Of a stretch of DNA of 39,067 nt, positions 3,539 through 33,929 are shown piece by piece (positions within the stretch are counted from its first letter, which is position 1; each line of letters begins with the position of its first letter). The DNA is from a virus (Duplodnaviria > Heunggongvirae > Uroviricota > Caudoviricetes). The position numbers and the translations under genes were made by a program. The notes under the pieces are model-generated. The model worked only from the letters and a program-made list of their open reading frames with translations, made no database searches and had not been told where the DNA came from. The stretch lies in IMG/VR virus record IMGVR_UViG_2703718794_000007, one strand, 5' to 3'.

Positions 3539-4561
3539 ATGGGAAGAGATATAACGCTGTACCCTAAAAAAGCAACTAGAAACGAACTTAAAAATTACCT
3601 TGAAAATTTAGGTTTTAAAAGGTGTAAACATTTGTGGGAATGGCCCCAAGGAACGTTGAATTACTCTTGGTTTGATGATACGGACTTCAAATCTACAGAT
3701 GGAGTTTCGGCTGATATATATCCTGTTTCAAATGACGAACTACACATATCTGGTAATAAATGGGCATTGCATGTGCGTAATTTATATAGCGCTAGTTGGC
3801 ATGATGTAAAAATGCTTAATGATGTTCTAAAAGGCGCACGGAGTCTTTTTGGTGGAACACTTATAGGTGATTATGGGAAAAATAGGTACGCTCCTCTATG
3901 GAAGGATTCTAGTAGTCCGATCAGTCGTGGCATTTCTTCAATATTTAATCATGTCCATCATGAGATTTCCGCTGTTAAACATGCCTTACCTGAACCTTCT
4001 ATTAAATTAAACCTACCGGAAGATGGCGGCTTATTCGAATACTTTGATTACATGCAATGTATGGATCCCAGTAGAGTTATATATAATGGATTAGTACCTT
4101 TTGCGGTTGCTATGTTTGAATATTTTTTCTCTAGAGCTTTTCAAATACTTATAAAGTACGATCCTTTCGCAATAGCAAAAAGAACATCGTATAAGCAAAA
4201 AGTTGATTTTGATATTCTGCTTGAGATAGAGAAAGGAAATATTTCAATAGAAAGTGTTATTGCAAGAAATTACACTTTTCAAAACTTAACCCACCTAAAC
4301 AAAGCATATAAAGAGTGGCTGGATATAGATGTGAGAGCGATTCTTTATAAGAAAAAAAGAATTGGAAAATCAGTTGATTTTCTTGAGAATCGAATTTCTG
4401 AAATCATACAATATAGACATGGGATAGTTCATCACTTTGAGTTGGATAGGACCTTAAATCGGGATGGATATATTCATATATTAGATGCGATAGAAAAAAG
4501 CATAATTGAATTTATCCATTACATAGAAGGCAAATACAAATTTAAATTAAATGCGTATTAA
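3539..4561 (+). CDS. Hypothetical cargo protein; possible C-terminal HEPN-like Rx4H motif
   Basis: 340-aa ORF, AT-rich, opposite strand to the flanking ogr and D; C-terminal YRHGIVHH; no family recognised. Confidence 0.65.
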   Translation: MGRDITLYPKKATRNELKNYLENLGFKRCKHLWEWPQGTLNYSWFDDTDFKSTDGVSADIYPVSNDELHISGNKWALHVRNLYSASWHDVKMLNDVLKGARSLFGGTLIGDYGKNRYAPLWKDSSSPISRGISSIFNHVHHEISAVKHALPEPSIKLNLPEDGGLFEYFDYMQCMDPSRVIYNGLVPFAVAMFEYFFSRAFQILIKYDPFAIAKRTSYKQKVDFDILLEIEKGNISIESVIARNYTFQNLTHLNKAYKEWLDIDVRAILYKKKRIGKSVDFLENRISEIIQYRHGIVHHFELDRTLNRDGYIHILDAIEKSIIEFIHYIEGKYKFKLNAY

Positions 4562-23975: not shown

Positions 23976-25727
23976 ATGATTCAGGACGCTTTTGTGCGCC
24001 AGCGTGCGCGGCAACTTTACTGGCAGGGTTATCCGCCCGCAGAAATATCACGTCTGATGGGAATAAACCCGAACACGATTTATGCGTGGAAAAAACGTGA
24101 CCAGTGGGATGAAACGCCACCCGTGCAGCGTGTCACGCAGTCCATCGATGCGCGCCTCATCCAGCTTACTGAAAAACAGAATAAAACAGGCGGTGACTTT
24201 AAGGAAATAGACCTGCTGACCCGGCAGCTTAAAAAGCTGCATGATGGCCAGCCGGATGTGATGGCCGCAGGAAAGAAAGGCCGGGCGAAAAAACTCAAAA
24301 ATCATTTCACGCCGGAACAGATTGCCGCACTGCGGGAAAAAATCATCAGCAGGCTGGAGTGGCATCAGCGGGGCTGGTTTGACTCCCTGACCCTTTGCAG
24401 GGAAGCCGGGATACGTAACAGGATGATCCTGAAATCCCGACAGATTGGGGCGACCTGGTATTTTGCACAGGAAGCACTGCTGATGGCGCTGCGTGACGAT
24501 GTGGCGCAACCTTACCAGCGTAACCAGATTTTTTTGTCTGCGTCGCGTCGTCAGGCGTTCCAGTTTAAAAGCATTATTCAGAAGGCCGCGGCTGAAGTTG
24601 ATGTGGAGCTGAAAGGGGGCGATAAAATCATCCTCTCCAACGGCGCAGAGCTGCATTTTCTCGGCACTTCTGCTGCGTCGGCACAGTCCTATACGGGCAA
24701 TTTTTATTTTGATGAATTTTTCTGGGTCAGTCGCTTTGCTGAACTGCGCAAGGTGGCTGGCGCTATGGCAACCCTCAGCGGACTGCGGCGCACCTACTTC
24801 TCCACGCCATCCACCGAAACGCACGAGGCATACGCCTACTGGAACGGCGACCGCTGGAACGAGAAAAAGGCCTCGCATAAACGCCAGCGTTTTTCTGTGG
24901 ACTGGAAAACGCTGCATAACGGGCTTATCTGCCCTGACCGGACGTGGCGGCAAATTGTCACGCTGGAAGATGTGGTTAATCACGGCTGGAAACACACCGA
25001 TATCGACGAAATTCGTGATGAAAACACCGAAGACGAGTTCCTCAATCTATATATGTGTGAGTTTGTCCGCGAAGGGGAATCGGCATTTAACCTGAATATC
25101 CTGATTGGCTGCGGTGTTGACGGATACGACGACTGGAAAGACTGGAAACCTTTTGCTCCCCGCCCGATGGGGAATCGTCCGGTATGGATTGGGTATGACG
25201 CAAACGGCAGTAGTGGCAACGGCGACAGCGGCGCTGTGTCCGTGGTGGTTCCTCCGGCTGTTCCTGGCGGCCGTTTTCGAACAGTGGAGACGCGACGCGT
25301 TCAGGGGCTGGAGTTTGAAGAACAGGCCAGAGTCATTGAAGAGTTCACGTGTCGCTACAACGTGGAACACATCGGCATTGATGTGACGGGCGGGAACGGG
25401 GAGGCTGTTTATCAGATAGTGAAGCGGTTTTTCCCTGCTGCTATTCCGTACACCTTCACGCTGTCATCAAAACGGTCGCTGGTACTGAAAATGCTGCAAA
25501 TAATGCGTGCCGGGCGGTGGGAATACGATCGCGCCGAACGCGAGCTGGTCGCGGCCTTTAACGCCGTGCGTAAGGTGAAAACACCGGGCGGCTTTATCAC
25601 TTACGAAACGGACCGCGCGAGGGGGATCAGCCACGGCGACCTTGCGTGGGCAACCATGCTTGCTGTCATTAACGAACCAATTGGCGGCGAAGGAGAAAAC
25701 GAGCGTTTCATGGTTATGGAGTTCTGA
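23976..25727 (+). CDS. P: Terminase ATPase large subunit P
   Basis: 583 aa, divergent from O. Confidence 0.9.
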   Translation: MIQDAFVRQRARQLYWQGYPPAEISRLMGINPNTIYAWKKRDQWDETPPVQRVTQSIDARLIQLTEKQNKTGGDFKEIDLLTRQLKKLHDGQPDVMAAGKKGRAKKLKNHFTPEQIAALREKIISRLEWHQRGWFDSLTLCREAGIRNRMILKSRQIGATWYFAQEALLMALRDDVAQPYQRNQIFLSASRRQAFQFKSIIQKAAAEVDVELKGGDKIILSNGAELHFLGTSAASAQSYTGNFYFDEFFWVSRFAELRKVAGAMATLSGLRRTYFSTPSTETHEAYAYWNGDRWNEKKASHKRQRFSVDWKTLHNGLICPDRTWRQIVTLEDVVNHGWKHTDIDEIRDENTEDEFLNLYMCEFVREGESAFNLNILIGCGVDGYDDWKDWKPFAPRPMGNRPVWIGYDANGSSGNGDSGAVSVVVPPAVPGGRFRTVETRRVQGLEFEEQARVIEEFTCRYNVEHIGIDVTGGNGEAVYQIVKRFFPAAIPYTFTLSSKRSLVLKMLQIMRAGRWEYDRAERELVAAFNAVRKVKTPGGFITYETDRARGISHGDLAWATMLAVINEPIGGEGENERFMVMEF

Positions 25728-26773
25728 TGAGCAGAAAAAATAAAAAAGTGCGCATGAGTTCACGCATTGATCTCGCTGATGCGCTCAGGAAAGAATCATC
25801 GCTCAGTGCATTCACATTTGATGGTCCTTATCGCCTGACCGGGCATGACCTGCTGGACAATATGTACTGTGCTGATAACGGGCGGTGGTATGAAACCCCG
25901 GTGGACTGGTACGGTCTGGCAAGAGCAGCCCGGCAAACGTCCTGGCATCAGTCTGCGCTTTACTTTAAGCGCAATGTATTACTCGGTTGCTACATCCCGC
26001 ACCCGCTGCTTTCCCGGCAGGATTTCTCGGCGCTGGCGCTGGACTGGTTTGTGTTCGGTAACGCATTCCTTGAGCTTCGAAGCAATATGCTCGGCGAACC
26101 GCTTAAATTACGGCACGCCCTGGCGAAATACATGCGACGCGGAAGCGATCTTGAATCATGGTGGTATGTGCAGGATGGCAAGGACGCGTTTCAGTTTCGT
26201 CCTGGCAAAGTGTGCCACCTGATGAATCCGGATATTAACCAGGAAATCTACGGCATGCCGGAATATCTTGGCGCATTACTCTCGGCCAGCCTTTCTCATT
26301 CGGCGGACATGTTCAGAAAACTGTACTACGACAACGGATCCCACGCCGGGTGCATCATCTACATCGGTGCAGCGCAGGTAAACCGCGAAAGCATGGACTC
26401 CCTGAAAGAAACGCTACAGGGGGCACGTGGTGGTGGTGCGTTTAAAAACGTGCTCATTCATGCGCCCAACGGGGGCAAAGAGGGGGTGCAAATTTTGCCG
26501 TTCCAGCAGATCACCGCAAAAGATGAATTCATGAATGTTAAGGCGGCATCCCGTGATGATGTGCTGGCTGCGCACCGCGTTCCGCCGCAACTGATGGGGG
26601 CGATGCCGGGCGAAAAAAGTGCGTTTGGCGATGTGGAGAAGGCAGCGCGGGTTTACGCAATTAACGAGCTGATGCCCGTCATGGAGGCTATGAAGCACAT
26701 CAATGACTGGCTTGGCGAAGAGGTGATCCGTTTTAACTCTTATGCTCTTCTTGATGAAAAAACAGCCCCGTGA
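25727..26773 (+). CDS. Q: Portal protein Q
   Basis: 348 aa, overlapping the P stop. Confidence 0.9.
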   Translation: MSRKNKKVRMSSRIDLADALRKESSLSAFTFDGPYRLTGHDLLDNMYCADNGRWYETPVDWYGLARAARQTSWHQSALYFKRNVLLGCYIPHPLLSRQDFSALALDWFVFGNAFLELRSNMLGEPLKLRHALAKYMRRGSDLESWWYVQDGKDAFQFRPGKVCHLMNPDINQEIYGMPEYLGALLSASLSHSADMFRKLYYDNGSHAGCIIYIGAAQVNRESMDSLKETLQGARGGGAFKNVLIHAPNGGKEGVQILPFQQITAKDEFMNVKAASRDDVLAAHRVPPQLMGAMPGEKSAFGDVEKAARVYAINELMPVMEAMKHINDWLGEEVIRFNSYALLDEKTAP

Positions 26774-26787
26774 TGGGGCTATCCTTT

Positions 26788-27312
26788 TTACCAGAGTTGA
26801 ACCATTTTCTGGGTGCCGTCAGGCTTGAGATTATCAATTTCAGAGAGAACGTAATATTGAATGGCTTCACAAACGGTGGTGTAGGGTGAATTACCTTCTT
26901 TAAGTGGCACGATATTATTATTAACGCGAACCTGTATTTCATCGTTATACATTGCGATCGAAACAGGAGTGTGCACGAACGCGACTTCGCCAGGTGTGTC
27001 GTCAACCACCGTTTCAATACTAAAAGTCAGTTTTCGCTCATCATTGCTGCCCCGTGCTTTGGGGGTAGCGGCAGGGATCTGGGATAAAGGCATTCTGCGA
27101 AATCCTTCGGCTGCTTCCAGTCCGCATGAAACGTAATGCTGGCGATTACCGTCGCTATCTGTCCAGGTCTGTGATGGCAGCTCCAGCGAGATTTCATAAG
27201 CATCAACAATGCCCTGGGCAAGGCGTACAAGCGGGGTCAGATCTTCATTGCGGCGAAAGCTCTCCTTTACCAGCTCCCGTTTTTCTCTTAACTGCTTGTA
27301 ATTAATGACCAT
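26788..27312 (-). CDS. Hypothetical protein between the portal gene and the presumed cos region
   Basis: ORF 26788-27351; start at MVINYK with a GGAGG RBS; convergent with Q, 14 bp apart. Confidence 0.55.
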   Translation of the reverse strand: MVINYKQLREKRELVKESFRRNEDLTPLVRLAQGIVDAYEISLELPSQTWTDSDGNRQHYVSCGLEAAEGFRRMPLSQIPAATPKARGSNDERKLTFSIETVVDDTPGEVAFVHTPVSIAMYNDEIQVRVNNNIVPLKEGNSPYTTVCEAIQYYVLSEIDNLKPDGTQKMVQLW

Positions 27313-27811
27313 AAGACAGCCTCCATTGATTTCTTTGCTCGTATTTTGCACTTATGAAGTATGGTCGGCAAGGTGCCGTATCGCTGACGCGCTTCGCTTG
27401 TCTGCTGCTTCGCCGGGGCATAAAAAATTTATGCCCCGGCTCTCCAGCTCCTGTATCAATCAGATAATTTCACGACGCCTTCCAGTTTATCGCCACCATC
27501 GACGGTCAGACTCTTACGCAATTCCACCGCGTTGACTGTATGTTCTCGCTGCCTCAGTGCGATTTTGACGGCCTTACCTTTCACCCCATCAAATCAAAAG
27601 CCCTCACGCCTTTTTCATGCTCAGCGTGAGAAATATGGCCATTCTGTTGTGTCTCTGCGACATCGTTCAGGGAATGCTATTTACCCCCTGAAACGCGGGC
27701 TGTTCCCCCGTCACCTGCGCGCAGAAAAAACGCGTTTTTTTGTGCACGCACGGATCCTTGACGGATCCAGCCGCCACGCGGGCCGGAAGGGCAAAAAGTC
27801 GTTCAAAAAAA

Positions 27812-27848
27812 TTGTGCAAATTTGTGCACTATTGTGCATTGCGCACTT
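27812..27848. repeat. Three TTGTGCA direct repeats at exact 10-bp spacing plus a GCGCAC variant
   Basis: TTGTGCA at 27812, 27822 and 27832; contains the palindrome TGCAAATTTGCA. Confidence 0.5.
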
Positions 27849-27857
27849 GTTATAAAT

Positions 27858-27886
27858 AAACAAAAAAAGAGCCGCTATTGCGGCTC
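27858..27886 (-). terminator. Intrinsic terminator of the HTH-peptidase/PIN operon
   Basis: On the minus strand, 7-bp stem GAGCCGC/GCGGCTC followed by a T-run, 34 nt after the PIN stop. Confidence 0.6.
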
Positions 27887-27919
27887 AATATAATCCAATA
27901 TGGCAAGAGAGATTTGGAT

Positions 27920-28438
27920 TCATTCGAAACTGGCAAGAATCTGTTCTCGAACAGAAGATTTCATCGTTAACCCACGATCTAGGAAAAATTGGAAATGCAT
28001 TAAGGCTTGTTGTTTGTGGATAAGTCTCCTGTGCACAGCCTCTTGAAGTAGCCCTCCGTGGCGGGCGGCTTTTACACCGCGTTCCGCACACGTTTTATAA
28101 ACCGCATTATCCGCCGAAAGACATGTTGCATCATGTATTCTCGCGTTAACAACGCAGCTTATGTCCGCATACTTCAATGCTCTCCTGCGATTTTTTATCT
28201 CAGCCATTTCAATAAAATGTTCAGGTTCGTAATCATTGGTGAAATTGTATGGAAGTTGCAGGCGTGTAAGCTGTTCCTGAACATCAAGATTGTATTTAGC
28301 TTTTAGTTCCTCGCAGACATAGGGGTCAATCCACACACCACCCGGGTAAATTTGCCAGATAAGATCTAAGCATTTACCTTCGTAAAAATCAGACAGTACA
28401 TTCGTATCGATAACACATCTGGGGCATTCAAACGGCAT
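27920..28438 (-). CDS. PIN-domain protein (putative toxin/nuclease)
   Basis: ORF 27920-28471; from MPFECPRCVIDTNVLSD it shows the PIN-type N-terminal Asp motif and a later HDAT acidic motif; start overlaps the upstream gene. Confidence 0.7.
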   Translation of the reverse strand: MPFECPRCVIDTNVLSDFYEGKCLDLIWQIYPGGVWIDPYVCEELKAKYNLDVQEQLTRLQLPYNFTNDYEPEHFIEMAEIKNRRRALKYADISCVVNARIHDATCLSADNAVYKTCAERGVKAARHGGLLQEAVHRRLIHKQQALMHFQFFLDRGLTMKSSVREQILASFE

Positions 28439-29573
28439 CCTCTCCGGCCTCCTGTTCGTCGTACCATTCATCCAGAAGATTGCTGAGAGCTTTTCTGTCT
28501 AATTCTAAAAGTTCAGATATGAAGGTTTCCGACGCGGAACCGGCTTCCCATGCTTTACGCGATAAGACGGTTAGGCGGCCTTTATAATTTAGTGCTTCCC
28601 TAATGGGATTTGGCTCGTGTCTCTTCCAACCTTTACGATTGGCGGTTGCCCATAGGTATCTAGTGTTTTGTTGATTAATTAAATTACATTTACTAAGACG
28701 ATCGATGATGCAAGTGGCTGATACTCTGAAAATGCTTTTTAGTCTAAGGACGGTTTCCTCATACGCCCATCCACCACCTTGCATGACGAATTGTTTTCGC
28801 AATGCGCTTTCTGGTACCAAAAAACAAGCAGCAAAGTGATTAGCAACTTTTTCTTCCGGTGAAATTGCTTTGCCATTGGTTTTATAGCTTTTAGCAGGGC
28901 CATCATACTCATCACGGTGGAAGATAAGATGAGCATATTCATGGCAAATACTGAAGATTTGACGTTCTATTGAAATGCTATCGTGAACATTTACATAAAT
29001 CGCGGTACCGTATTTGTTCGAAAACGCAGAAAATCCGAATACCATCCCTTTATCAGTTTCTTCGCGATTGAACGGGATTACTCGAATATCCGATGCTTCC
29101 AAAATGGCTACAATGTCACCAACGCAAGTAGCGTTTCCTATACCGAGACGGAAACGTTCTTCCATAGCCTTATCTTCGACTCTTCGCAAATCTTCTGCTT
29201 TGGCGGTAAAAATAGGCATTGAGTTAGGAAGATCTTCTGGCAAATTAGCATCTGCAGCTTCCTCAATTGCATTGATATTTTTTAACTTTTCAATCAACTC
29301 ATTGCGAAGTTTGGCATCCAACAAATCCGGACTATCTGCTCGCATTGCAAAACGAAACTCGCCATCATCTTGCTCATAAAAATACCCGATAGGCTTATCG
29401 AAAATCTTGCAGAGCATGATGAGTTGGGTAACGCTTGGGACGCCTAGCGCCTGCTCAAACTTACTGTAGGTTTGACGAACAACACCGATCGCATCTGCGA
29501 CGGCGCTTGCACTCATTCCTGCGTCGTTTCTGGCCTGAACCAAGCGTTCTGCTATACGCTGTTGAATGTTCAT
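28428..29573 (-). CDS. XRE-family HTH fused to an ImmA/IrrE (COG2856) zinc metallopeptidase
   Basis: 381 aa; N-terminal helix-turn-helix (MSASAVADAIGVVRQTYSKFE) and HEYAH zinc-binding motif mid-protein. Confidence 0.75.
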   Translation of the reverse strand: MNIQQRIAERLVQARNDAGMSASAVADAIGVVRQTYSKFEQALGVPSVTQLIMLCKIFDKPIGYFYEQDDGEFRFAMRADSPDLLDAKLRNELIEKLKNINAIEEAADANLPEDLPNSMPIFTAKAEDLRRVEDKAMEERFRLGIGNATCVGDIVAILEASDIRVIPFNREETDKGMVFGFSAFSNKYGTAIYVNVHDSISIERQIFSICHEYAHLIFHRDEYDGPAKSYKTNGKAISPEEKVANHFAACFLVPESALRKQFVMQGGGWAYEETVLRLKSIFRVSATCIIDRLSKCNLINQQNTRYLWATANRKGWKRHEPNPIREALNYKGRLTVLSRKAWEAGSASETFISELLELDRKALSNLLDEWYDEQEAGEDAV

Positions 29574-29754
29574 ACGTCACCTGAATTTAACAATGGTGGC
29601 TCTTATGGGTTTAGATTGGTTAATTATTACTAACATTATGAATGGAGAGTTGCAAAAATCATAGTTAAATTATGCAAATTTCATGGAGCGTGATGTGGTG
29701 TGGGTTCACACTCTCTGCTGATTACATCTAGGGCGGTTTCCGCCCTGGCTCTGC

Positions 29755-30066
29755 TTACTCAGGAAATAGCGCCCGGATATTTCCGGCCATCTGACTGGTT
29801 ATCTGTGCGGTTGATACTGGCTGTGATGCGGGGCGTTCTGTCCTAGTTTGTGTCACTGATAACGCTTCATCATCAGCCCATGCAGCCAGTCGGTAAGCCT
29901 CTGCCGGATTCATTTTCAGAAGTGCCAGCCCGGCCAGAAAAGCCACACGTTGGCCGCTTTTGCGGGCTTCTGGTGTAAGGCTGTCCAGCCAGGCGCATGC
30001 TTCGCCTTCGTTCTTTACGGCGGCGGGCTTCAGATAGAAACTTATTCGTCTGGTTGGTGTCGTCAT
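29755..30066 (-). CDS. parR: ParR-like partition adaptor
   Basis: ORF 29755-30201; from MTTPTRRISFYLKP the sequence matches my recollection of R1 ParR (LDS..ER...AFLAGLAL, C-terminal LFPE); directly after parM. Confidence 0.7.
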   Translation of the reverse strand: MTTPTRRISFYLKPAAVKNEGEACAWLDSLTPEARKSGQRVAFLAGLALLKMNPAEAYRLAAWADDEALSVTQTRTERPASQPVSTAQITSQMAGNIRALFPE

Positions 30067-30070
30067 TGGT

Positions 30071-31030
30071 TTACTCCTTGTCCATTGCGTACAGCCCATT
30101 AACCAGAGCAAACTGTGGCACCCCGTCCGCGATGAAAGTCGCATTAACTCCGCAGGCTTCGCGGATAGCGGGTGCCACAATCTCCGCCCCGCCACCGACA
30201 ACCATCACCCGCCCGTAACCCGAAAAACCCGCCAGCGCGCGGATCACGCGTTGTTTCAGTGTTTCTTCCTTTTCACGAATAACCGCCATCAGGCTGGCGT
30301 AATGCGCGTCATTGTGGATGTGCTGGCGCAGCCAGGCTTCATCATGGCGATGTTCGATAATGGTATTGGCGATGTGGTGACTGGTACGCATACCGTTAGT
30401 GGCCATCACCGACAGTACGGCATCGGCCATCAGGGAAACGCCTACGTGTGGATCGCAAAACACCTGGCTGATACCTGCCAGTTGTCCCTGAACCTTTGCC
30501 ACATCCAGCGTGGTTCCGCCCAAATCCACAATCAGCAGGGATTCAAACGGACTCATGTCAGCCAGTGCTTTAAAACCAGCCGGAATGGATTCAGGCATAA
30601 CCCGTACGTTACGGATAGTGAATGCTTGTCCGTTCTGGTAGGCCACCGGGCGCATGACGTTTGCTTTTTTGCGGTTGATGTTGGCCATGTCCGGCTGTGC
30701 GTTTGTGTCGAAATATTCGCTCAGTGGCAGGGTGACAACCACATCCACCTCCTGTGGTGTGATGCCTGATTTGACCAGCGCGTGATGAATGGCAATGACA
30801 TTCACATCGCTGTACTGGTATTGCGTGTCGGTCGTCTGGACAAAGCGATCGCTGACCGGATCAAAACCATAGCGCACGCCATCAAGCATGTAGTTCGCGG
30901 GCTGCGTGCCACCGAACGGCGCAGACCATTCCGACTTGAAGCTGTTCGGGCTGATGGCGTTGCGGCGTTCGCCGTTCTCAGTCCATGCCAGCTTGATGTT
31001 GGTGGAGCCGTCATCGATACAAATTTTCAT
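30071..31030 (-). CDS. parM: ParM/StbA-like actin-fold segregation ATPase
   Basis: 319 aa; MKICIDDGSTNIKLAW, VMPESIPAG, LIVDLGGTTLD and VVGGGAEI match ParM motifs. Confidence 0.8.
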   Translation of the reverse strand: MKICIDDGSTNIKLAWTENGERRNAISPNSFKSEWSAPFGGTQPANYMLDGVRYGFDPVSDRFVQTTDTQYQYSDVNVIAIHHALVKSGITPQEVDVVVTLPLSEYFDTNAQPDMANINRKKANVMRPVAYQNGQAFTIRNVRVMPESIPAGFKALADMSPFESLLIVDLGGTTLDVAKVQGQLAGISQVFCDPHVGVSLMADAVLSVMATNGMRTSHHIANTIIEHRHDEAWLRQHIHNDAHYASLMAVIREKEETLKQRVIRALAGFSGYGRVMVVGGGAEIVAPAIREACGVNATFIADGVPQFALVNGLYAMDKE

Positions 31031-31061
31031 GTCGCTTTTCCTTATGTTGATTAATTAATCG

Positions 31062-31170
31062 TTTACGGGATTCTGAAATCCCGTTTTTGCCTGTTTTATG
31101 CGCGCTTCATATATCGCGGCGCGTTTTTTGCTCATTTACGGGATTTGTGAATCCCGTTTCTGTCTGTTTT
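31062..31170. repeat. Two 36-bp direct repeats, each an 8-bp-stem dyad followed by a T-rich tail
   Basis: Copies at 31062-31097 and 31135-31170 (ACGGGATT-N4-AATCCCGT); copy 1 is between the A stop and parM start, copy 2 is inside the last codons of A. Confidence 0.45.
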
Positions 31171-33929
31171 TTGTTTCCACTGGTCAGGCCACCCCGCAGC
31201 AGGTCTGCTTTGCGGCGGGCGCGTTCAGTGGTTTCACTGATTCTCTGTGCGTGCTCTGCGTCGCGGATGGCGCGCAGCATGTCAGAAAGCACGGTAACGG
31301 GGGTTTTCATGGTGTTCTGGTCCTGCTGAAGTGTGGATGCCAGGCGTGCGGCGGCTTCGGGGTCTGATGCCCCCAGCTGTTCCAGATAGCTGGCGACCGG
31401 GTTATGGCGGATCTCCGTGCTGCTTACGCCGTGGTTACGGCTCAGGCGCTGCCAGAGATGCGTGATCCGGCTGTCCGGTCGGGTATCCGGTTTGCGTACA
31501 ATTTCAAATCCCTGCGGTGCAATGATGCTGCCGTCAACGTACAGACTGCCGCCCCGTAACAGGTGCTGCATCTGCTGTTCACCGATATGCAGGCCGAGAG
31601 ATTCAGCAGACTCCCGCCATTCTTTAGCGAGTAATTCGTGGTTATCAGGCAAAGGCCGCTGCTGTTTGCGGCTCTGTGTCCAGCTCTGCATTTCATCACT
31701 GCTGTTTTTTACCTGTTTGTCACGAAGCGAACGCATCAGCGCCCGGCGTTCGTGCCGTTTCAGTGAGCGCATCCATTCGTTCACTTCAACGCCGTCAGGG
31801 AGTTGCGGCCACGGTGCTGGCCGTTCTTCCGGCTGTTCTGTCCCGTTGTTGTCCGTTTCCTGTACACGGGGACAGTTATTGCCACGAGTCCAAGGGGCGG
31901 CAGGGCCGCCCTGAAGGTCAAAACCATTTTCGCGGGCGCTGTCTTCCGCTTCCGGTTTACGTCTTACCAGCTTCCAGTTATCCGGGTGCGTGCACACGCG
32001 GGAAGACTCCCCGATGAGCGGCGACCAGATCCCGTAAATCTGTACACTCTGCTCGCCGTAATCGTTCATCTCATCTGCGAGGTCGTAGGCGGTGCGAATC
32101 AGGTAGTCTTTGCGTGGAACAAGTACGCCACCCTGTTTCTCAATGTAGGTGGCAAAACATCCGGCATCAGCGGCAGCGAGTACCGCGTCCATTGCGTCAT
32201 CCTTCAGCCGTTGCGGGCCTTCCGGGTTGCGTGCCATCTGGCTGGCAAGGCGGCGCAGTTCACGCCACACCTGACGGGAGGGGATACCAAAGAACTGGAA
32301 CTGGCGGACCCGGTGAAGGCGCGCCCAGCCGATGGCGCGTTCCACGCTCTCGGCCATTGATTTTCCGGTTTCGTGGTCAACGCGTGGCTTGCCCGTTTTC
32401 GGGTCGATGCCATCCACGGCGCGGCTGTCCAGGTTCTTTCCGATGTAGGTGGCGATGTAGCTGGTTGGTGTGCCTTTTGAGCCGTCGACATACTCCACCT
32501 TAAAGCGCGGAGTAATATCATTGCCCAGCTCGTGGCGGTCTTCCTGAATGGCAATATCGCGGGTGATGGCCACGATGCTGTCGATTTCTTCCGGATGAGC
32601 AAAGACCATCATGTGCCAGTGCACGGTGCCGTCATGGTGAGGCTCCACCGTGCGGATGCCATACCAGCGCAGGCCGTCGCGGTTCAGTTTTTTGCGGACC
32701 GCCGCAAAAAACGTGTTAACCAGGTAATCGCTGGAGTCGCGCATGGTGGCCCCGTTCCATTTGGGGTTCGGATGACCGTTCTCCGTTGTTGCGTGGTATT
32801 TTGACGGGCAGGTGACAGTCAGAAACACCGCTCTGTCGCCACGGGCTTCGGCCAGAAGTTCCAGTCCCTTCATGGTGGCCATCATTTCTGCCTTACGGTG
32901 AACCGGGTTACTTACTCCCGCGTAATACACCGTCTCGAGATCAATCGTGAACCCGTCTTCATTTTCCAGCATGAAACTTTTCAGGAAATCGCGTGTTTTC
33001 TCGCGCTGTGCGCGAAACTCGCTTAACGCGTCCTGGCTCAGATAGGGCGATGTTTTTCTGGAAACCAGACAGGCGGCGCGGAGTTGTTCTTCTCTCCACT
33101 CGCAACGTACCAGCCACAATTTGCGTTTCCACCATTCCGCACAGGTCAGGCGAAGGATTGCGCCCGGCAGCAGCTCCGTGTCCGGTTCGTTCCTCCGGTC
33201 TTTGTCTGTTGTCAGTGCGTCATAATGTGGAGGCATGGCGTGCAGGTGTAACGCCATGCGGGCCAGCATCTGATACGCCTTCAGCGTTACATCCATGGTC
33301 AGTTCACCATCAGTCGCGCCAAAGCCATCGCAGAGTTTTTCGAAGGTGCTGCTGAACATCGCCGCCGTCATGGTGGCCAGCGTCTGTATCTGGTGTTTGT
33401 TGAGCTGCGGCAGGTAAAGCAAATCGTCCAGGCGTTCGCGTCCGGCAAGGGAGCGATAACCCGGTGTCAGCCAGCGTCCGTCAGTGCGATCCAGACGTTC
33501 GAATATTTTGCGCAGGGTTCCGCGTGCATAGCGTTCCGCCTGCCAGCTCTTTTTGCCTTTCCGGCGATCGGCTTCCTGTTTTTTGCGCAGGAAGGAGAGG
33601 TGGCGAATAAGCGGATCGCGCAGATAGGACGGCAGCAGGCGCAGCGAGGCCATGGCTTCATCCACCGCGCCGCGTGCCTGTTTTCTGGCGTCTCCTGCCA
33701 GTGTGATGGTTTTGTCCTGTTTTTCCTGTGCGTCCAGGCTTTTATTAATCAGGCCGCCCAGCGGCGTGGCGGAGAACGCCGCATCAGCCATTTCCTGGCG
33801 GCGCTCGTTCTCTGCCCGGTAGGCATCCAGCCAGGAGGAAAGCGCGGATTCAGGAGCGGGGATCCCCGTTCCTTCACGCCCCACTGCGTGGCGCGGTTGT
33901 TGCCAGTCCCTGATGTACTCTGCCGTCAT
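31107..33929 (-). CDS. A: Replication initiator A (rolling-circle HUH endonuclease)
   Basis: 940 aa; HWHMMVF and YIATYIGK motifs typical of the P2 gpA family. Confidence 0.8.
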   Translation of the reverse strand: MTAEYIRDWQQPRHAVGREGTGIPAPESALSSWLDAYRAENERRQEMADAAFSATPLGGLINKSLDAQEKQDKTITLAGDARKQARGAVDEAMASLRLLPSYLRDPLIRHLSFLRKKQEADRRKGKKSWQAERYARGTLRKIFERLDRTDGRWLTPGYRSLAGRERLDDLLYLPQLNKHQIQTLATMTAAMFSSTFEKLCDGFGATDGELTMDVTLKAYQMLARMALHLHAMPPHYDALTTDKDRRNEPDTELLPGAILRLTCAEWWKRKLWLVRCEWREEQLRAACLVSRKTSPYLSQDALSEFRAQREKTRDFLKSFMLENEDGFTIDLETVYYAGVSNPVHRKAEMMATMKGLELLAEARGDRAVFLTVTCPSKYHATTENGHPNPKWNGATMRDSSDYLVNTFFAAVRKKLNRDGLRWYGIRTVEPHHDGTVHWHMMVFAHPEEIDSIVAITRDIAIQEDRHELGNDITPRFKVEYVDGSKGTPTSYIATYIGKNLDSRAVDGIDPKTGKPRVDHETGKSMAESVERAIGWARLHRVRQFQFFGIPSRQVWRELRRLASQMARNPEGPQRLKDDAMDAVLAAADAGCFATYIEKQGGVLVPRKDYLIRTAYDLADEMNDYGEQSVQIYGIWSPLIGESSRVCTHPDNWKLVRRKPEAEDSARENGFDLQGGPAAPWTRGNNCPRVQETDNNGTEQPEERPAPWPQLPDGVEVNEWMRSLKRHERRALMRSLRDKQVKNSSDEMQSWTQSRKQQRPLPDNHELLAKEWRESAESLGLHIGEQQMQHLLRGGSLYVDGSIIAPQGFEIVRKPDTRPDSRITHLWQRLSRNHGVSSTEIRHNPVASYLEQLGASDPEAAARLASTLQQDQNTMKTPVTVLSDMLRAIRDAEHAQRISETTERARRKADLLRGGLTSGNKKQTETGFTNPVNEQKTRRDI

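Follow-up and report, generated by a model that had tools for sequence, protein, structure and literature searches.

A conserved R1-type parM/parR module with a candidate two-dyad site in the backbone of P88-like, P2-family phages

The virus record IMGVR_UViG_2703718794_000007 of IMG/VR (Duplodnaviria; Heunggongvirae; Uroviricota; Caudoviricetes) is a stretch of 39,067 nucleotides (nt), here called the window, and between positions 29,755 and 31,170 it carries a parM/parR gene pair with two dyad repeats upstream. An earlier note, made from the letters alone, had read this locus as an R1-type plasmid partition pair inside an integrated P2-like prophage, resembling an imported plasmid-stability cassette. 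The window is indeed a P88-like (P2-family) phage, with terminase, capsid and tail genes, cox, a helix-turn-helix (HTH) repressor and an intact integrase of the tyrosine type, the stop codon of which is the final base of the window (39067). The window therefore holds no host flank and integration itself cannot be read from it, so that this part of the description stands for the phage family and the integrase only; near-identical relatives of the phage do sit integrated. The order on the minus strand is gpA (33929-31107), a 76-nt gap, parM, parR, a hairpin and an AT-rich cargo stretch, after which comes the portal gene. The features of the locus, in the direction of transcription, are:

31107-33929, minus strand: gpA, replication endonuclease of 940 amino acids (aa), Pfam Phage_GPA (E 1e-130), stop codon at 31107-31109
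31132-31173, minus strand: distal repeat of 42 nt with a dyad at 31138-31157, candidate ParR site 2, inside the gpA coding sequence
31059-31100, minus strand: proximal repeat of 42 nt with a dyad at 31065-31084, candidate ParR site 1, about 35-55 nt upstream of the parM ATG
31031-31058, minus strand: parM leader, with a TTAATCAA box conserved in E. coli, Hafnia and Plesiomonas and the Shine-Dalgarno sequence AAGGA at 31043-31039
30071-31030, minus strand: parM, actin-like segregation ATPase of 319 aa, with Pfam, PDB and PHROGs matches
29755-30066, minus strand: parR (stbB), predicted DNA-binding adaptor of 103 aa, Plasmid_stab_B, phrog_2515
29730-29746, minus strand: GC-rich hairpin AGGGCGG-AAA-CCGCCCT directly past the parR stop, fold z-score -3.1

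Alignment identifies the two proteins as an R1-type (type II, actin-like) ParM/ParR pair, which upholds the similarity that had been proposed from their clear motifs. ParM matches the Pfam domains StbA_N (E 6e-82) and ParM C-terminal (E 1e-68), aligns end to end with R1 ParM in the PDB (1mwk; residues 2-316, E 1e-92), to which it is 46.8% identical over its full length, and falls in the PHROGs family phrog_691, 'partition protein'. The columns of the phosphate-1 motif DDGST (D6, D7, G8, S9 and T10), the phosphate-2 motif DLGGTTLD (D169, G171, G172, T173, T174, L175 and D176) and the adenosine motif GGGA (G279, G280, G281 and A282) are invariant among the 13 homologues that were aligned.

The evidence for ParR comes from Pfam (Plasmid_stab_B, E 1.7e-24), from PHROGs, where phrog_2515 is likewise a 'partition protein' family, and from BLASTP against an R1-type ParR (33% identity over the N-terminal 61 aa, E 2e-8); a search of PDB sequences with ParR gave no match. 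The parR ATG begins 4 nt past the parM stop. A longer open reading frame of 148 aa, starting from a TTG at 30201, was rejected as an over-extension, since the ATG at 30066 matches the annotated 312-nt coding sequence of relatives. The protein consists of a conserved N-terminal segment (RRISFYLKP), a hypervariable linker and a conserved C-terminal NIxxLFPE. The tail motif N-[IA]-x-x-[LF]-F-P is present in all phage ParRs, across a range of 38-97% identity, and its likeness to the R1 ParR C-terminus, KKNAMKLIN, is a resemblance of motif only. Among E. coli prophages ParR is polymorphic (52-97% identity) while ParM stays at 91-99%. This variation lies in the helical core and the linker; the N-terminal 19 residues and the NIxxLFPE segment are invariant, and the upstream dyads are identical for both major ParR alleles. 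Hitch-hiking with cargo exchange or diversifying selection are possible sources of the allele diversity.

Upstream of parM, the earlier note had described two 36-bp direct repeats with internal dyads. The repeats, the dyads and their position are all borne out, and the length is corrected to 42 nt: the two direct units are 81% identical, have a start-to-start spacing of 73, and each carries the dyad CGGGATT-N4-AATCCCG, written with 8-bp arms as ACGGGATT-N4-AATCCCGT. The sequence CGGGATTNNNNAATCCCG occurs exactly twice in the 39-kb window, at these sites only, with 0.12 occurrences expected by chance when two mismatches are allowed. Among close relatives (95-98% overall identity) the repeat region is no more conserved than its flanks, a comparison that is uninformative because such relatives are too similar to reveal constraint; the evidence for constraint therefore rests on deep comparisons. 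In E. coli a GGG-N10-CCC pair lies at -125 and -52 from the parM ATG (spacing 73), and the same pair recurs at -131 and -59 in Plesiomonas (spacing 72) and at -128 and -55 in Hafnia (spacing 73), three lineages in which ParM is only 62-63% identical and the intergenic DNA has otherwise diverged. The distal copy overlaps the gpA end in Plesiomonas as well. Because the GGG/CCC cores and their spacing are retained in Plesiomonas and Hafnia while the stems there are merely 3-4 bp, a protein-binding DNA site is favoured over an RNA hairpin, and what is conserved is a DNA motif together with its phasing. Moreover, the dyad half-site AAWCCC resembles the core of R1-type iterons, AAACCCA, which recurs with an 11-bp period in an R1-identical locus. 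These comparisons support the repeats as dyad sites in the parC position and as a candidate centromere/operator.

At two further loci, of Serratia (L008, 7887-7940) and Enterobacter (L066, 7883-7950), arms GAAATAGAAAAA.../...TTTTTCTATTTC replace the two direct dyad units. The N-terminus of the Serratia and Enterobacter ParRs reads NRKISFYLKP, against TRRISFYLKP in the other ParR alleles, and with two groups only the ParR N-terminus and the upstream site may co-vary.

The distal repeat had been placed inside the 3' end of the A reading frame, with the true C-terminus of A in question. The last 22 or so gpA codons do overlap the distal repeat, and the gpA stop, located between the two repeats, is real: P88 and RefSeq relatives are annotated with it, and a Salmonella relative with a gpA of 82.5% identity has its stop at the same position. 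For the C-terminal ~240 aa of gpA (31107-31900), the alignments with Plesiomonas and Serratia gpA end at about residues 696-796, and this region appears specific to the P88 lineage.

As regards transcription, a scan of 29500-31400 found no consensus sigma-70 promoter, and no minus-strand terminator was found between gpA and parM. We infer from these two results that transcription of parMR comes largely by read-through from the early (lytic/replicative) operon, together with gpA. The parM leader may hold a weak promoter element; its TTAATCAA box was considered as a -10 element and was unconvincing on hand inspection. Rfam, searched at E <= 1 over 26700-31500, gave no match. The hairpin past parR may mark the end of the operon, though it has no U-run, and it stands where the conserved module gives way to the variable cargo.

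The distribution of the module was assessed in 5426 complete E. coli genomes. This gpA type has a match in 1443 genomes (1321 at a coverage of at least 80%) and parM in 1303 (1279 at a coverage of at least 80%), that is, 97% co-occurrence when 1279 is set against 1321, and 1441 of the 1443 places of parM are chromosomal. The base composition of parM (GC 55%, GC at third codon positions, GC3, 64%) is like that of gpA (58% and 65%) and terminase (54% and 61%) and not like that of R1 parM (39% and 34%); the cargo pair next to the module has 43-44% GC and 38-42% GC3. Within the E. coli/Salmonella group the mean ratio of nonsynonymous to synonymous substitution (dN/dS) is 0.07 for parM and 0.05-0.24 for parR. 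Beyond the E. coli cluster of ParMs at 91-99% identity to the window, the best matches come from Plesiomonas (63%), Hafnia (62%), Serratia (58%) and Enterobacter ludwigii (54%). All four of these genes lie downstream of a Phage_GPA gene and are followed by a Plasmid_stab_B gene, and at three of the four loci P2-type portal and terminase genes come after that, the Serratia contig ending before the portal. The other genes of these phages are strongly diverged from those of the window, with identities of 30-47% for the portal, 35-44% for the large terminase and 29-55% for gpA. Neighbour-joining places the seven gpA-linked ParMs in a single clade, separate from R1 and the other ParMs (bootstrap 65/100), within which E. 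coli, Plesiomonas and Hafnia are grouped with a bootstrap of 100/100. ParM matches at 53% identity or below have no gpA in the fetched flanks (up to 8 kb).

Import as a plasmid-stability cassette is thus contradicted on three counts: parM is present in nearly as many genomes as its gpA, its GC3 is gpA-like rather than R1-like, and its nearest homologues, on comparison with other P2-like genomes, all lie between gpA and portal in divergent P2-like prophages. On these counts parMR is, from its sequence and placement, a selected and long-resident backbone module of P2-like lineages and not a recent import.

Three ParM homologues of 46-47% identity from Raoultella and Klebsiella (L038, L041 and L061) have no gpA within 8 kb. 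L041 and L061 are chromosomal and L038 is a large contig, the three being a complete chromosome, a 5.3-Mb scaffold and a 314-kb contig, and their ParMs may belong to another kind of integrated element.

Between parR and the structural genes lie the following features:

28428-29573, minus strand: HTH-M78-peptidase gene, 381 aa, PADLOC RmrA (Rosmer antitoxin-like), E 3e-35
27920-28471, minus strand: PIN gene, 183 aa, overlapping the HTH-peptidase gene, weak PDC-S70 matches
26788-27351, minus strand: unassigned open reading frame, 187 aa, phrog_5091, E 3e-66
25727-26773, plus strand: portal gene

The HTH-peptidase and PIN genes had been taken as a toxin-like pair belonging to the same cassette as parMR. 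This does not hold: the pair is AT-rich, occurs in only 32 of the 5426 genomes (all 32 at a coverage of at least 80%), where it is always chromosomal, and is replaced by other cargo in relatives. Homology to the relatives ends just past the parR stop, at 29725-29755 of the window, and the parR-portal interval carries different cargo in P88, PV468777 and pZ1323. Variable presence, off-backbone composition and a defence match, which characterise hotspot cargo, are all seen in the HTH-M78/PIN pair and not in parMR. The pair is ordinary hotspot cargo in the position of P2 old/tin (A to portal), unlinked to parMR. PADLOC gave no defence match for ParM or for ParR, and parMR as a defence system was dropped as a candidate on this null result for both proteins, the neighbouring RmrA-like/PIN pair being what does match. 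The reading frame at 26788-27351 has no match in Pfam, PADLOC or NCBIfam and is probably further hotspot cargo. An Escherichia albertii prophage (NBRC 107761) is a mosaic in this respect, being window-like in gpA (97%) and ParM (99%) and divergent in the portal (30%) and large terminase (35%), which implies that recombination took place in or close to the hotspot that follows parR. Towards the opposite end of the window, the regions 1264-2157 and 3539-4561 encode two further proteins, one of them VasI-like (type VI secretion; E 3e-25) and the other matching RiboL-PSP HEPN weakly and below threshold (E 1.6e-4; 22.1 bits, cut-off 28.4), and they are probably a second accessory-gene region of the phage.

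The gene pair itself is already known and annotated. A region of 1.55 kb is 97% identical to Escherichia phages P88, phiSM, P884B11, 520873 and PhiR44_2, an identity that spans parR, parM, the repeats and the 3' end of gpA. In P88 (NC_026014; Xuanwuvirus, Peduoviridae) the homologous genes are gp17 and gp18, and the records of P88 and its relatives label the pair 'plasmid segregation protein ParM' and 'partition protein'. These phages share the gene order and the repeats of the window; they differ in the parR-portal cargo and carry several ParR alleles. The phiSM paper mentions the gene solely as a 'fitness' factor (PMC6456863), and an episomal hypothesis has already been published for P88 (PMC7969092). 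What the present analysis adds is the ancestral backbone position in divergent lineages, the purifying selection, the independence from cargo and the conserved two-dyad site over the gpA stop.

A comparison with the parMRC (stbAB) locus of R1 and R100 shows how far the resemblance goes. The order of sites, parM and parR is shared, ParM retains all ATPase motifs, and the two ParRs share a Pfam family and resemble each other in the putative N-terminal DNA-binding segment and, as a motif, in the C-terminal tail. In R1, parC has ten 11-bp direct iterons, five on either side of the promoter, and in the R1-type sequence that we read, iteron-like cores with an 11-bp period likewise form two blocks flanking a central segment. 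The window has instead a pair of dyads of 18-20 bp at a distance of 73 bp, the distal one in the upstream gene, and no consensus promoter. The replicons differ as well, the window being an integrating rolling-circle phage and R1 a theta plasmid.

Taking these results together, we lean, by a small margin, towards a functional type II (ParMRC) segregation module in the conserved backbone of P88-like (Xuanwuvirus) phages and several other P2-family phages. In such a module, ParR dimers would bind both dyads through their N-terminal, putative ribbon-helix-helix segment, each dyad serving as an inverted pair of AAWCCC cores. Lying 73 bp apart (about seven helical turns, on the same DNA face), the dyads would form a small centromere/operator straddling the gpA stop. 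The ParR C-terminal tail (N-I-x-x-L-F-P) would then capture the ends of ATP-ParM filaments, and the growing filaments would push ParR-bound circular phage genomes apart. The substrate would be an extrachromosomal circle only. P2-type replication yields monomeric circles after infection or induction. Because only an extrachromosomal circle can be moved, the action would be placed in the replicative or establishment phase, where circles would be dispersed or segregated for efficient replication or for reaching both daughter cells; the same activity would readily extend to a transient carrier state resembling a plasmid. The more specific proposition, that a selected actin-like machine with a minimal two-dyad centromere moves the circular monomer genomes of integrating P2-family phages, be it in lytic replication and packaging or as a facultative plasmid, we regard as evenly balanced.

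A precedent of comparable organisation is AlpAC of CGP3, an integrated prophage of Corynebacterium glutamicum, which combines an actin-like ATPase, a DNA-binding adaptor and upstream sites. AlpC and AlpA are induced early, the adaptor binds sites upstream of their own operon, and the system acts on the excised phage circle, which does not replicate efficiently without it (PMC4446434). AlpAC belongs to a different actin-like family and a Gram-positive host, and its likeness to the P88 module is one of organisation only; by analogy, the P88 module may work in the same manner on excised circles.

Several observations weigh against a functional segregation module. The expression timing is deduced solely from missing promoter and terminator signals. 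There are only two dyads (four cores) here, compared with ten iterons in R1 parC, and the Serratia and Enterobacter relatives have a different layout upstream of parM, with inverted arms of 17-20 nt. The AlphaFold2 monomer of ParR has low confidence (mean predicted local distance difference test score, pLDDT, 55.9), with helices at 20-28 and 32-52 after an unstructured N-terminus; such a model is compatible with a strand-helix-helix fold that needs a dimer, and it is too poor for a fold search. ParM clusters cut to 188-261 aa, with 414-649 members each, exist among prophages, and at one locus of E. coli 2013C-3181 (L068, 13856-16817) an internal deletion has joined the parM start to the parR end, and gpA carries a frameshift; this decaying copy carries HTH/PIN cargo 100% identical to that of the window. 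The literature searched for ParM/ParR function in P2-like phages contained annotation-level mentions only and no functional study. Finally, P2 and 186, which are not known to carry such a module, grow well, so that it would be dispensable for P2-type replication as such.

The strongest alternative, which we consider possible at perhaps half the weight of the segregation module, is that P88-like phages are facultative phage-plasmids that persist as low-copy circles besides integrating, with ParMRC as the partition system of the plasmid state. A plasmid state would be the simplest explanation of purifying selection on a partition system. In the phage-plasmid screen of Pfeifer et al. (2021), P88 was a putative phage-plasmid for which episomal and integrative states were suggested (PMC7969092). 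Like the window phage, the phage-plasmids P1, N15, SSU5 and KS14 are temperate and carry a plasmid-type partition system, and KS14 of Burkholderia is itself a P2-like phage that lysogenises as a plasmid, combining a P2-type virion module with RepB, ParA and a serine recombinase (PMC3091744). PLSDB, moreover, lists under pZ1323PEC0009-2 (NZ_CP148288.1; E. coli isolated from a cat) a circular 'plasmid' of 34,461 bp that turns out to be an entire P88-like genome: int, cox, gpA and parMR are there, along with the full set of virion genes.

The same records also limit this reading. Seven PLSDB matches were found and three were inspected, the other four being large records of 272 kb to 1.4 Mb. Only pZ1323PEC0009-2 among the three is a whole circular phage; of the remaining two, one is part of a prophage carried by an IncC plasmid and the other a linear Shigella contig that is unplaced, and plasmid-borne copies of parMR were accordingly set aside as evidence of an episome. 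On the IncC plasmid, the conjugative, KPC-bearing pC-Ec2-KPC (NZ_MK439959.1), IS26 copies bracket a large P88-like piece with gpA and parMR, which indicates that chromosomal prophage DNA was captured by IS26. The phage of the lone circle is also integrated in a sister strain: the 1.5-kb portal-to-cargo stretch of NZ_CP148288.1 (23450-24930) is 99.9% identical to the integrated prophage of strain Z1323HEC0067, and the circle may be an excised replicating form that was assembled separately. Phage-plasmids lysogenise as plasmids with plasmid replicons, whereas P88-like phages have an intact tyrosine integrase and a chromosomal location in 1441 of 1443 cases, with one circular record of 34.5 kb, and P88 itself, whose attP has been defined, derives from an integrated prophage (PMC5285337). 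The only initiator seen is the rolling-circle gpA in the lytic early operon, and no plasmid-type, regulated replicon was seen beside it in the part of the window reading frames that was scanned for Rep proteins. An episomal state of the window phage may exist.

It is unlikely, in our judgement, that parMR acts from the prophage in trans, through partition incompatibility against plasmids or superinfecting phages, or that ParR is mainly a transcriptional regulator. The locus adjoins the accessory/defence hotspot that P2-type phages have between gpA and portal, the half-site core resembles that of R1/IncFII iterons, and many ParR alleles (52-97%) alongside a uniform ParM (91-99%) form a pattern sometimes found in conflict genes. 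However, neither protein matches a PADLOC model, and parMR is constant whereas true hotspot cargo varies. The segments of ParR for specificity (N-terminal 19 aa) and for ParM contact (the tail), as well as the dyads, are invariant across alleles, which puts the variation in the linker and not in specificity. No promoter of its own was detected for parMR, and regulation in trans would not call for an ATPase kept intact at a dN/dS of 0.07.

That the dyads are RNA hairpins, terminators or gpA-linked replication signals beside a decaying parMR relic is very improbable. In favour of this reading, each dyad precedes a T-rich run on the plus strand and scores there as terminator-like, the distal copy lies inside gpA, and some prophages have a truncated parM. 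Against it, the strand on which the dyads score is the antisense one for the genes on either side, the coding strand having no U-run after either dyad, and hairpin strength is not conserved in Plesiomonas and Hafnia, where cores and spacing are; terminators were rejected on these two grounds. Rfam, moreover, gave no matches, and a relic is excluded by the dN/dS of 0.07 and by the 97% co-occurrence with gpA.

To conclude, we describe a 'plasmid' partition system that resides in the chromosome of about one in four E. coli genomes, under strong purifying selection, in an integrating phage. For annotation, parMR alone should not count as proof that a contig is a plasmid. If the predicted segregation module acts on excised or incoming circles, its two-dyad site would represent a natural and compact form of ParMRC centromere and the module would be the enterobacterial counterpart of CGP3 AlpAC. 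The boundary between integrating phages and phage-plasmids would then be blurred in a very common prophage family.

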